The notes under the pieces: generated by a model
What the model was told of the DNA's origin: nothing
What the model saw: the letters and a program-made list of their open reading frames with translations, nothing else
Database searches by the model: none
From: Escherichia coli
GTDB lineage: Bacteria > Pseudomonadota > Gammaproteobacteria > Enterobacterales > Enterobacteriaceae
Assembly: GCF_965641715.1 (NCBI RefSeq)
Contig: NZ_OZ282453.1
Length of the DNA: 64,000 nucleotides
Reading direction: 5' to 3' (one strand)
Made by a program: the position numbers and the translations under genes
Part shown: positions 6,199 to 32,572 of the stretch, piece after piece
Numbering within the stretch: position 1 is the first letter of the stretch
How the letters are laid out: each line of letters begins with the position of its first letter

Positions 6199-7149
6199 AT
6201 GCGTGTGTTACTGGCACCGATGGAGGGAGTGCTTGACTCTCTGGTGCGTGAATTGCTGACCGAAGTTAACGACTACGATCTGTGCATCACCGAGTTTGTC
6301 CGCGTGGTGGATCAACTGCTGCCGGTAAAAGTCTTTCATCGCATTTGCCCTGAGTTACAAAACGCCAGCCGGACACCATCCGGTACGCTGGTGCGCGTTC
6401 AGTTGTTAGGTCAGTTCCCACAATGGCTGGCAGAGAACGCCGCCCGTGCGGTGGAATTAGGTTCCTGGGGCGTGGATCTCAATTGCGGCTGCCCGTCGAA
6501 AACGGTTAACGGTAGCGGTGGTGGGGCGACGTTACTCAAAGATCCTGAACTCATCTACCAGGGTGCAAAAGCGATGCGCGAAGCTGTACCGGCGCATTTG
6601 CCCGTCAGCGTGAAAGTGCGTCTGGGCTGGGACAGCGGTGAGAAGAAATTTGAAATCGCCGATGCGGTTCAACAGGCTGGTGCTACGGAGCTGGTGGTGC
6701 ATGGACGGACAAAAGAGCAGGGTTACCGCGCGGAGCATATTGACTGGCAGGCGATTGGCGAGATTCGCCAGCGGCTGAATATTCCGGTGATTGCCAACGG
6801 CGAAATCTGGGACTGGCAGAGCGCGCAACAATGCATTGCGATCAGCGGCTGCGACGCAGTGATGATTGGTCGCGGGGCGCTCAATATTCCCAACCTGAGC
6901 CGGGTAGTAAAATATAACGAACCGCGAATGCCGTGGCCGGAGGTGGTTGCTTTGCTGCAAAAATATACCCGTCTGGAAAAGCAGGGCGATACCGGGTTAT
7001 ATCACGTAGCGCGGATTAAACAGTGGTTGAGTTATTTGCGTAAAGAATACGATGAAGCAACGGAATTATTTCAGCATGTTCGGGTGTTGAATAATTCCCC
7101 TGATATTGCAAGGGCTATTCAGGCAATTGATATCGATAAGCTGCGATAA
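6199..7149 (+). CDS. dusC: tRNA-dihydrouridine(16) synthase DusC
   Basis: translation from [13 protein letters not shown] matches remembered DusC (315 aa); longer ORF from 6142 would place the hairpin and T-run inside the CDS. Confidence 0.93.
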
Positions 7150-7536
7150 TAGTGGAATCGCAGTTTATCAGAGACAATGAATCGCTTATTCAGCGTCATC
7201 ATCTTGTTGCGCTCCTTTCATGAGCTAAGCCACATATTGCCACTGGCGCAAGGAGCGCGCAGGGGGAGGACAATCGCCTCCTCCCCCTGCACCCCCGGGC
7301 TCTGGCGAACAAAATCGCCGCTGCGCGGTACCTTCAGCTTATCCCCTTCGGCTACCGGGTCGGGCGCGAGGAAACGTCCTTGTAAGACGCGCCCTCAGCC
7401 CACATCCATGTGGGCTGCCCCGGCCTTCGGGGAACGCTTCAGCGATTTTGACGCCACCAACACCGGAGCTGTTTGCAAATCAAGTACACAAAATATCTAG
7501 TTCCTGACCTGACAACTTATATGCCATATCTGATTT

Positions 7537-17163: not shown

Positions 17164-18081
17164 ATGCCACTCTCAAAGGTCTGGGCAGGTTCACTGGTTT
17201 TGTTGGCAGCCGTGAGCCTGCCGCTGCACGCGGCTTCCCCCGTTAAAGTCGGTTCAAAAATCGATACCGAAGGCGCGCTGCTCGGCAATATCATTTTGCA
17301 AGTACTCGAAAGCCACGGAGTACCAACGGTCAATAAAGTGCAACTTGGAACGACTCCTGTGGTGCGCGGGGCGATTACTTCCGGTGAACTGGATATCTAT
17401 CCGGAATATACCGGCAATGGCGCGTTTTTCTTTAAAGATGAAAACGATGCAGCGTGGAAAAACGCGCAGCAAGGTTACGAGAAAGTCAAAAAACTCGATG
17501 CAGAGCAAAACAAGTTAATCTGGCTGACGCCCGCACCTGCAAATAACACCTGGACCATCGCCGTGCGTCAGGATGTGGCAGAGAAAAACAAACTCACTTC
17601 GCTTGCTGACCTGAGTCGTTATCTGAAAGAGGGCGGCACCTTCAAACTGGCAGCCTCGGCAGAGTTTATCGAACGCGCCGATGCCTTACCCGCGTTTGAA
17701 AAAGCCTACGACTTTAAACTCGATCAGGATCAGTTACTGTCACTGGCTGGCGGCGACACGGCGGTAACGATTAAAGCCGCTGCCCAACAAACTTCTGGCG
17801 TTAATGCCGCAATGGCTTACGGCACTGACGGTCCGGTCGCGGCGCTGGGGCTGCAAACCTTAAGCGATCCGCAAGGCGTGCAACCTATCTACGCGCCTGC
17901 ACCAGTGGTGCGTGAATCGGTGTTGAAGGAGTATCCGCAAATGGCACAGTGGCTACAGCCAGTCTTCGCCAGCCTCGATGAAAAAACATTGCAGCAACTG
18001 AATGCCAGCATTGCAGTGGAAGGACTGGATGCCAAAAAAGTGGCTGCCGACTACCTGAAACAAAAAGGGTGGACGAAGTAA
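17164..18081 (+). CDS. osmF: periplasmic osmoprotectant-binding protein
   Basis: 305 aa with signal peptide; first gene of a four-gene ABC transporter operon. Confidence 0.9.
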   Translation: MPLSKVWAGSLVLLAAVSLPLHAASPVKVGSKIDTEGALLGNIILQVLESHGVPTVNKVQLGTTPVVRGAITSGELDIYPEYTGNGAFFFKDENDAAWKNAQQGYEKVKKLDAEQNKLIWLTPAPANNTWTIAVRQDVAEKNKLTSLADLSRYLKEGGTFKLAASAEFIERADALPAFEKAYDFKLDQDQLLSLAGGDTAVTIKAAAQQTSGVNAAMAYGTDGPVAALGLQTLSDPQGVQPIYAPAPVVRESVLKEYPQMAQWLQPVFASLDEKTLQQLNASIAVEGLDAKKVAADYLKQKGWTK

Positions 18082-20168: not shown

Positions 20169-20900
20169 ATGAAGATGTTGCGCGATCCGCTGTTCTGGCT
20201 CATTGCTTTGTTTGTGGCACTGATTTTCTGGCTGCCTTACAGCCAGCCGCTGTTTGCTGCCTTGTTCCCACAACTGCCACGACCCGTTTATCAGCAAGAA
20301 AGTTTTGCAGCTCTGGCACTGGCTCATTTCTGGCTGGTGGGAATTTCGAGTTTGTTTGCGGTGATCATTGGTACTGGTGCCGGAATTGCTGTCACTCGCC
20401 CGTGGGGCGCGGAATTTCGCCCACTGGTGGAAACTATTGCCGCCGTTGGACAGACTTTTCCGCCCGTCGCAGTGCTGGCGATCGCCGTTCCGGTGATCGG
20501 GTTTGGTCTGCAACCAGCGATTATCGCCTTGATCCTTTACGGTGTGCTGCCCGTCCTGCAGGCGACACTTGCCGGGCTGGGAGCGATTGATGCCAGCGTG
20601 ACAGAAGTTGCGAAGGGTATGGGAATGAGTCGTGGTCAGCGACTGCGTAAGGTCGAGCTACCGCTGGCGGCTCCGGTGATTCTGGCGGGCGTGCGAACTT
20701 CGGTGATTATCAACATTGGTACGGCGACGATCGCCTCAACGGTAGGGGCCAGCACGCTGGGTACGCCCATCATCATCGGGCTTAGCGGATTTAATACCGC
20801 GTATGTGATCCAGGGGGCGTTACTGGTGGCACTGGCGGCGATCATCGCAGACCGCCTGTTTGAAAGGCTGGTGCAGGCGCTTAGCCAGCACGCAAAATAA
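20169..20900 (+). CDS. yehW: ABC transporter permease
   Basis: 243 aa polytopic permease, 4 nt after the yehX stop. Confidence 0.9.
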
Positions 20901-20988
20901 AGGTATAACCTGCGAGCATGACGCCACCAATTCCGCCTAACGCCATAAACAGGAACAGGGCGATGACCCCAATTTTAGCTATGCGCAT
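20881..20988 (-). CDS. yohO: small membrane protein YohO (35 aa)
   Basis: minus-strand ORF translating to [35 protein letters not shown], verified codon by codon; AAGGAG RBS 6 nt upstream; 3' end overlaps the yehW 3' end by 20 nt; not in the ORF track. Confidence 0.7.
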
Positions 20989-21047
20989 AATGCACTCCTT
21001 ATGTTAACGAAAGGATTGTACAGTAAAGCGCATTTGTTAACGAATCA

Positions 21048-21779
21048 TTAAATGCCGAGTGGGAAAATATCATAGCCTTGTTCTTGCCAACTGGTGAGTT
21101 GCTGTTGTTGGGCGGAGGTTCGATTTTCACCGCACCACACCAGCAATGTACGGCCTTCGAACAGTTCAGGGCGTAGTTGATTGAGCGAGTGGGCGAGGAC
21201 ATCAATGCGCCATCCTTGTTGACTGGCAATCCAGCCCTCCAGCCACAGACGGGTGGTATCGTGAATATTCCAGCCAACCACCAGCGCATCTTTACCCTGT
21301 TTTTTACGTGCCGAAGCCAGACAGATGGCGATGTAGTTGATCAGTACGCCGTCGAGGATCGCCAGCAGCGCCTGGAGAGTCGGTTGTTGGCACTGAAGCC
21401 GTCGACGCAGAGGAATAAACAAATGCGTGGTGAGCGTCTGGGCGGGGTAATCCTGACCGCGCTCTTTGATCCACGTTCGCAGGCTATGCAGATTGCCGCT
21501 TTGCAAGTAAGTCAGTAATGTTTCTTGCTGATCGCGCCAGCCGTTCTGCACATCAACATTTTCATTACTGAGCAGCATTTTAACTTTGCTGACCTGCACG
21601 CCGTTGTCGATCCAGCGTTTGATCTCGCGGATCCGGTCAATATCGGCATCGTTGAACAGCCGATGACCGCCGTCTGTCCGTTGCGGTTTCAGCAATCCGT
21701 AACGCCTCTGCCACGCGCGTAACGTGACAGGGTTAATATCACAAAGCAACGCCACTTCACCAATTGTGTAAAGCGCCAT
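21048..21779 (-). CDS. mlrA: MerR-family transcriptional regulator MlrA
   Basis: 243 aa; N-terminal MerR HTH (YTIGEVALLCDINPVTLRAWQRRYGLL). Confidence 0.9.
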   Translation of the reverse strand: MALYTIGEVALLCDINPVTLRAWQRRYGLLKPQRTDGGHRLFNDADIDRIREIKRWIDNGVQVSKVKMLLSNENVDVQNGWRDQQETLLTYLQSGNLHSLRTWIKERGQDYPAQTLTTHLFIPLRRRLQCQQPTLQALLAILDGVLINYIAICLASARKKQGKDALVVGWNIHDTTRLWLEGWIASQQGWRIDVLAHSLNQLRPELFEGRTLLVWCGENRTSAQQQQLTSWQEQGYDIFPLGI

Positions 21780-32482: not shown

Positions 32483-32572
32483 ATGGACACGCTGACACAA
32501 AAGTTAACCGTGCTCATTGCTGTACTGGAGCTATTAGTAGCTCTGTTACGGTTGATTGATTTGTTGAAGTAA
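32483..32572 (+). CDS. zorO: type I toxin, 29-aa hydrophobic peptide (ZorO/ShoB-like)
   Basis: ORF MDTLTQKLTVLIAVLELLVALLRLIDLLK with AAGGAG RBS 5 nt upstream, verified codon by codon; long leader from predicted TSS near 32308; not in the ORF track. Confidence 0.7.
   Translation: MDTLTQKLTVLIAVLELLVALLRLIDLLK

Follow-up and report, generated by a model that had tools for sequence, protein, structure and literature searches.

yohO, a conserved small membrane-peptide gene of Escherichia coli overlapping the 3' end of yehW tail to tail

The yohO gene and its peptide

The window analysed here, the whole stretch of 64,000 nt of Escherichia coli contig NZ_OZ282453.1, carries bglX, osmF, yehY, yehX and yehW on the plus strand, followed by yohO and mlrA on the minus strand and by btsS and btsR on the plus strand again (RefSeq annotation). 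The products of osmF-yehYXW form a glycine betaine ABC importer, according to an EcoCyc paper citing Lang et al. 2015. At the far end of this operon the coding sequences of yehW and yohO run into each other tail to tail. The features of the locus are:

20169..20900, plus strand: yehW coding sequence (ORF list and RefSeq annotation)
20881..20988, minus strand: yohO coding sequence, 35 codons and stop, ATG start (RefSeq 'protein YohO', NF010225)
20881..20900, both strands: double-coding segment of 20 nt, with yohO codons 30-35 and stop and the last yehW codons and stop
20995..21000, minus strand: Shine-Dalgarno sequence AAGGAG of yohO, separated by a 6-nt spacer (tgcatt) from the ATG at 20988..20986
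21002..21008, minus strand: proximal GTTAACA block, conserved, directly before the Shine-Dalgarno sequence and at the predicted transcript start
21015..21020, minus strand: -10-like hexamer TACAAT of the putative yohO promoter, 26 nt upstream of the ATG
21035..21041, minus strand: distal GTTAACA block, conserved, 14 nt upstream of the -10 hexamer
21048..21779, minus strand: mlrA, the same-strand neighbour upstream of yohO in E. coli, with a gap of 59 nt

An earlier note, made from the letters of the window, had read the minus-strand ORF as the membrane-peptide gene yohO with a consensus AAGGAG ribosome binding site. Our reading of the sequence and the ORF list agree on the 35 codons at 20881-20988, and the AAGGAG was found at 21000..20995, 6 nt before the ATG. 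The name is borne out by the RefSeq annotation and by the NCBIfam equivalog NF010225 ('protein YohO'), which matches the peptide over positions 1-35 of 35 with 80.1 bits (cutoff 57, E = 8.8e-23). YohO orthologues bear the precomputed Pfam label PF27791 (UPF0387_membrane); the local Pfam copy, without PF27791, gave only a sub-threshold B12D match for the peptide. No family related to YohO was found in PHROGs and no related chain in the PDB, nor did any toxin family in Pfam or PHROGs match.

The region was detected as a 701-bp stretch around the ORF, in which yehW, yohO and mlrA are all annotated by RefSeq, in 5423 of 5426 complete E. coli genomes. When the two were compared within the species, the osmF-yehYXW operon was found in 5421 and the yohO region in 5420 of the 5426. 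Both yohO and the transporter operon are thus core within E. coli.

Short ORFs are abundant in this region, with 49 ORFs of at least 20 amino acids per 3 kb, and the presence of the yohO ORF alone therefore means little. In shuffled versions of the 64-kb window, 0.49 occurrences are expected of AAGGAG followed by a spacer of 4 to 9 nt, an ATG and at least 35 codons; five were observed, three of them at the head of a long ORF. What speaks for yohO being a gene is the comparative evidence together with its published detection. Other AAGGAG-preceded frames were noted elsewhere in the window. At 17941..18081 on the plus strand, AAGGAG, 8 nt and an ATG precede a 46-codon ORF which ends at the osmF stop codon (18081) and is an in-frame internal start of that gene; this could be chance or an internal initiation site. 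At 7119..7202 on the minus strand, a 27-amino-acid ORF is preceded by AAGGAG at a distance of 8 nt.

YohO reportedly belongs to the small proteins of E. coli K-12 described by Hemm and colleagues in 2008. The protein has been detected by top-down proteomics/mass spectrometry (PMC12529367), and in the literature yohO translation is seen by Ribo-seq and the product is termed membrane-bound (Hemm 2008). Absence of translation from the minus strand, the outcome by which the earlier note would have been refuted, is contradicted by these ribosome profiling and mass spectrometry data. In Shigella flexneri, yohO mRNA was about 8-fold lower under anaerobic conditions (log2 fold change -2.96), and an effect of fnr is not listed.

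The peptide is very hydrophobic. Its GRAVY value is 1.58 and 19-residue Kyte-Doolittle windows reach 2.41, over residues 6-28. AlphaFold2, run on a 34-sequence family alignment, gave one helix from residue 3 to residue 33, broken only at the invariant G19 (mean pLDDT 89.8). With one hydrophobic, helical segment of bilayer-spanning length in the model, YohO is predicted to be a single-pass membrane peptide. Positive charges are present on the N-terminal side (R2 and K5) and on the C-terminal side (R33), which by the positive-inside rule weakly favours an N-in orientation.

A glycine-rich face was apparent on this long helix. In the pattern [G/S]18-G19-I-G21-G22 ... A26-G27, small residues recur at i, i+4 spacing along one side, and the core M15-A16-x-[G/S]-G-I-G-G-V-M-L-x-G-Y28 is invariant or nearly so. 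GxxxG and glycine-zipper surfaces serve tight helix-helix packing. By its glycine-zipper face YohO could act by packing against another transmembrane helix, either its own or that of a partner.

Taken as a whole, the locus is best explained by yohO being a bona fide, known gene for a 35-residue single-pass inner-membrane peptide, and we consider this very probable. The gene name, the product, its membrane character and the transcript overlap with yehW were all already on record. The locus illustrates that yohO is recognisable as a real small gene from sequence alone, and YohO belongs to the large group of validated but functionally uncharacterised small membrane proteins of this species. The additions of the present analysis are modest: an overlap anchored to fixed codons in 88 loci, dominance of the YohO frame within it, a promoter module of its own, the linkage to yehW and a lineage lacking the operon.

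Conservation of yohO and its promoter region

A set of 80 species-level Enterobacteriaceae loci was gathered with MlrA as a handle (L002-L081), covering Escherichia, Citrobacter, Salmonella, Enterobacter, Leclercia, Lelliottia, Kosakonia, Phytobacter, Buttiauxella, Atlantibacter, Cedecea and Franconibacter. It was supplemented with eight loci in which mlrA does not adjoin yohO (L082-L089). An intact yohO ORF of 35-37 codons with an ATG start was present in the window and in all but one of the 80 species loci. The exception, Citrobacter amalonaticus AUH_CA_2023_1 (L008, 3792..3900), carries one T too many in a run of T's (CTCTTTTTTACTG), which shifts the yohO frame; the remainder of the ORF continues intact in the +1 frame, and deleting the surplus T restores a perfect reading frame. 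This is probably a sequencing or assembly error in a long-read genome.

All 80 yohO nucleotide sequences were mutually different while the protein core was fixed. Residues M1, G19, I20, G22, V23, M24, L25, G27, Y28 and I31 are invariant, and K5, M15, A16 and G21 nearly so. The entropy at the first, second and third codon positions was 0.55, 0.22 and 1.18, and equal values were obtained for codons 1-28, which lie outside yehW. The pN/pS ratio was 0.29 and the median dN/dS 0.19. Codon-position entropy and dN/dS together form a protein-coding signature and not that of a conserved regulatory or antisense element; judged from the sequences, the yohO ORF is under purifying selection across the Enterobacteriaceae. 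The family is a narrow one, since a representative library of 1.84 billion proteins contained only 17 YohO relatives, mostly truncated, frameshifted or chimeric copies.

Conservation extends into the region upstream of the start codon. The GGAG core of the Shine-Dalgarno sequence was present across the loci and stood 6 nt from the ATG in 76 of 89. In 87 of the 89 loci, the distance from the end of a TATAAT, TACAAT or TATACT hexamer to the ATG is 25-31 nt, and in 64 of them it is exactly 26 nt. This -10 lies outside both coding sequences, and it and the yohO start codon are both outside yehW. The consensus promoter scan did not call the yohO -10 in the window and found no correctly spaced -35 box. 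The only good -35-like hexamer, TTAACA, is situated 14 nt from the -10, and only 6 nt from it in some Citrobacter that carry an 8-nt deletion, and was for this reason ruled out as a -35 box. From its sequence the promoter looks like one with a good -10 and a poor -35.

In most loci the sequence TTAAC occurs about 19 nt ahead of the ATG, and in 47 loci also about 52 nt ahead of it. The proximal GTTAACA would lie at or near the transcript start, as start-site or leader sequence. Both copies hold the palindrome GTTAAC, lie on either side of the -10 and recur from genus to genus; a regulator might bind at the distal copy. In Escherichia the -10 region (21015..21022, minus strand) reads TGTACAAT, a sequence that matches a half-site of the MlrA box reported for the region upstream of csgD. 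An MlrA box at this position was dropped as an interpretation, as other genera have TATAAT preceded by variable bases and the likeness is probably coincidence.

The module of -10, GTTAACA and Shine-Dalgarno sequence is kept where the gene upstream of yohO is not mlrA. In L083 and L084 it comes after metG and a textbook terminator hairpin (GGGAGAATACGTTCTCCCTTTTTT), in L086-L089 after a TonB-dependent receptor gene, and the -10 is also kept behind a gene for an ArsR-type regulator. Its persistence without mlrA upstream indicates that yohO is an independent transcription unit. The gene would then have its own promoter and a short monocistronic mRNA whose leader measures about 20 nt. Transcription running on from mlrA could reach yohO as well in E. 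coli, because the gap is only 59 nt and no terminator was detected in it.

The overlap with yehW and the convergent transcripts

The earlier note had placed the last 20 nt of yohO over the end of yehW. The overlap is exact, from 20881 to 20900, both stop codons included. An overlap of 20, 23 or 26 nt was found in every locus with an intact yohO, and this variation comes only from the length of the YohO C-terminus. In all 88 loci compared, the stop codon of yehW, TAA in 75 of them and TGA in 13, lies on the strand opposite yohO codons 30/31. In the phase used, second positions of yehW codons face third positions of yohO codons. The entropy of the yohO third positions inside the overlap was 1.18, as outside, and the last residues of YehW vary accordingly. 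From this pattern in the alignment, it is the YohO frame that carries the constraint in the shared segment.

It had further been proposed that the yohO mRNA is necessarily antisense to the 3' end of the osmF-yehYXW transcript and that this could couple expression of the two. The first part follows from the geometry: because the coding sequences overlap, full-length mRNAs are complementary over at least 20 nt. It also agrees with the listing of the pair by ExcludonFinder (NAR 2025), a study that maps overlaps only, in which yohO-yehW is among 165 convergent excludons present in at least 50% of 58 MG1655 RNA-seq samples.

The terminator scan downstream of both genes gave only weak matches at chance level, and a custom hairpin-plus-U scan at the 3' ends of yohO and yehW gave nothing below -10 kcal/mol. 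Folds of both 3' regions were no more stable than shuffled sequences (z = -0.70 and z = -0.59). With no evident intrinsic terminator on either strand, each transcript probably runs well into the other gene. The convergent transcripts might end by Rho-dependent termination, by collision of RNA polymerases or by processing; such collision is a documented way of ending the transcription of convergent genes in E. coli. Inside yehW, beside yohO (at approximately 20.2-20.9 kb), a binding peak of RNA polymerase holoenzyme is listed in a genomic SELEX study of minor sigma factors (type D, intensity 4.0).

Both flanking units have been connected with RpoS. The osmF gene is a core RpoS-dependent gene, and mlrA, yehW, yehX and yehY were all RpoS-dependent in one dataset. 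As both sides depend on RpoS they would be switched on together, unlike the mutually exclusive sides of classical excludons.

A rival reading takes the arrangement as a convergent excludon with a chiefly regulatory meaning: convergent transcription of yohO and osmF-yehYXW would yield complementary 3' ends, and by transcriptional interference, or by RNase III cleavage of the duplex, expression of one gene would affect that of the other. Of the rivals this one is the likeliest, and it is nonetheless improbable on balance. The obligatory complementarity of at least 20 nt is consistent with it, and so are the probably longer overlap in the lack of an evident intrinsic terminator, the listing of the pair as an excludon in at least 50% of 58 samples, the retention of the overlap in all 88 loci and the collision documented for convergent genes. 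Against it, listing in the excludome is automatic for any pair of overlapping coding sequences, and conservation of the overlap is expected from lock-in alone. Strong purifying selection on the peptide argues for more than an antisense RNA at yohO, RpoS induces the two flanking units together and not in alternation, and one Escherichia lineage, described below, keeps yohO without the operon. That the overlap has a measurable regulatory effect is possible, though we would rather expect that it has none.

Separating two overlapping genes damages one of them, and constant synteny is therefore expected even without a functional link. The preferred reading is that the yohO/yehW overlap would mainly be an ancestral arrangement that is not easily undone, with any antisense effect on yehW secondary and unproven.

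Linkage, possible roles and likeness to known systems

The gene yohO was positioned downstream of a yehW homologue, in convergent orientation, in 88 of 88 loci, including the eight without adjoining mlrA. Two divergent members of the family, P0014 and P0015 (60-64% identity), have metG, a gene for an ArsR-type regulator or a fepA-like receptor gene as upstream neighbour; they keep the 20-nt overlap with the yehW homologue, beside an intact operon of OpuAC, permease, ATPase and permease genes. Since yohO stays on yehW where mlrA is not adjoining, its physical linkage is to osmF-yehYXW and not to mlrA. The search with the YehW protein returned only relatives of at least 78% identity.

One lineage has lost the operon. 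In Escherichia sp. MOD1-EC7003 (L002, 3880..4266) a deletion of about 3.3 kb takes osmF, yehY, yehX and all of yehW up to its last 31 codons. The gene bglX abuts this remnant, and yohO is intact, with a protein identical to E. coli YohO. The deletion may be recent. In Leclercia adecarboxylata NCTC13032 (L045, 3883..6600) yehW and yehY are each split by frameshifts next to an intact yohO. These frameshifts are probably sequencing or assembly errors and not marks of pseudogenes. The partial yehW match of this locus, a string of frameshifts that also hits yehY, was set aside as uninformative.

KdpF with KdpABC, AcrZ with AcrB and MgtS with MgtA are small transmembrane modulators of transporters. 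By analogy with these, the likeliest candidate for a partner of YohO would be the YehW/YehY permease of OsmF-YehYXW, as a tentative suggestion that is well short of an even chance. The comparative linkage to yehW makes it a concrete first partner candidate for YohO. A more specific proposal, that YohO is a dedicated transmembrane partner of OsmF-YehYXW with its zipper packed on YehW or YehY, and that the overlap is kept because it balances the amounts of the peptide and the transporter, is unlikely. Were it true, convergent transcription would tune this ratio in stationary phase, when RpoS turns on both sides. The synteny of yohO and yehW cannot separate functional linkage from lock-in of the overlap; yohO lies on the strand opposite the transporter operon, unlike kdpF; and the MOD1-EC7003 lineage keeps yohO without osmF-yehYX and most of yehW.

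Slightly less probable still is a pairing with the other neighbour, in which mlrA and yohO form an operon, with yohO in second place, and YohO works with MlrA, aiding the MlrA-dependent control of csgD and curli. The two genes are on the same strand in the window and in L002-L081, with yohO 51-79 nt downstream of mlrA in most of them, no terminator was detected between the two, and mlrA is RpoS-dependent. The eight loci L082-L089 speak against it, for they have metG, a gene for an ArsR-type regulator or a TonB-dependent receptor gene upstream and keep yohO, the -10 and the overlap all the same. The conserved -10 and the short leader likewise argue for independent transcription.

It is very unlikely that YohO is a type I toxin with the 3' end of the yehW mRNA as its antisense antitoxin. 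The peptide is small, hydrophobic and single-helical, with an obligatory antisense partner, as this would require, and what is probably a genuine ZorO-type toxin is present in the same window at +32483. The predicted leader of yohO, however, is only about 20 nt with no long structured 5' UTR, and its consensus Shine-Dalgarno sequence is exposed. Ordinary cultures contain detectable YohO, the gene is present in one copy and passed on vertically in fixed synteny, and YohO has no toxin family match in Pfam or PHROGs. The promoter scan of the plus strand revealed no dedicated antisense RNA promoter at yohO. The sole antisense promoter-like site, at 20963..20991, has 9 of 12 matches with 0.9 such sites expected by chance, and uses E. 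coli-specific bases around the yohO ATG that are not conserved in the other loci.

The locus at 32483..32572 (plus strand) consists of a 29-amino-acid ORF, MDTLTQKLTVLIAVLELLVALLRLIDLLK, preceded by AGGAG. Its length and its six charged residues (D2, K7, E16, R23, D26 and K29) match the description of ZorO (PMC9860968), in which charged residues are required for toxicity. The 500-bp region around it is multi-copy, with a median of five places per genome, and was present at full length in 3331 of 5426 genomes; RefSeq lists only yehK under this stretch. It is probably a toxin-antitoxin locus of the zorO/zorP type, and the window is consequently not K-12-like there.

Finally, that the yohO ORF is a chance frame in the spacer between yehW and mlrA, conserved on account of the yehW 3' end or of regulatory DNA, draws on the very high number of short ORFs in the region and is refuted by the coding pattern that codons 1-28 keep outside yehW (entropy of 1.18 at third against 0.22 at second positions, dN/dS of about 0.19), by a start codon, Shine-Dalgarno sequence and length conserved in more than 80 species, and by detection of the YohO protein.

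Compared with known systems, the ORF in the window is the same gene as that of the YohO family (UPF0387; NF010225; PF27791), and nothing differs. With the convergent excludons it shares convergent genes and overlapping transcripts. It differs from them in that the coding sequences of yohO and yehW themselves overlap, by which the coverage asked of an excludon arises automatically, and in that convergent excludons are defined by reciprocal repression, whereas the two sides appear co-induced by RpoS here.

ZorO, like YohO, is a small hydrophobic alpha-helical inner-membrane peptide with a complementary RNA from the opposite strand. According to its published description, zorO has a 5' UTR of 174 nt, which impedes translation of the gene and is targeted by an sRNA dedicated to it. 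YohO departs from this by its short open leader, its consensus Shine-Dalgarno sequence, its routine detectability, its single copy and its lack of a dedicated sRNA, against the 174-nt UTR and sRNA antitoxin of ZorO.

The small transporter modulators KdpF, AcrZ and MgtS are of similar build, with approximately 30-50 residues, one transmembrane helix and a conserved small-residue packing face, of which the helix and the face are predicted in the case of YohO; a genetic association with a transporter may be a further likeness. In gene arrangement they diverge: kdpF lies within the operon of its transporter and acrZ and mgtS are unlinked to theirs, whereas yohO lies on the strand opposite the transporter operon.
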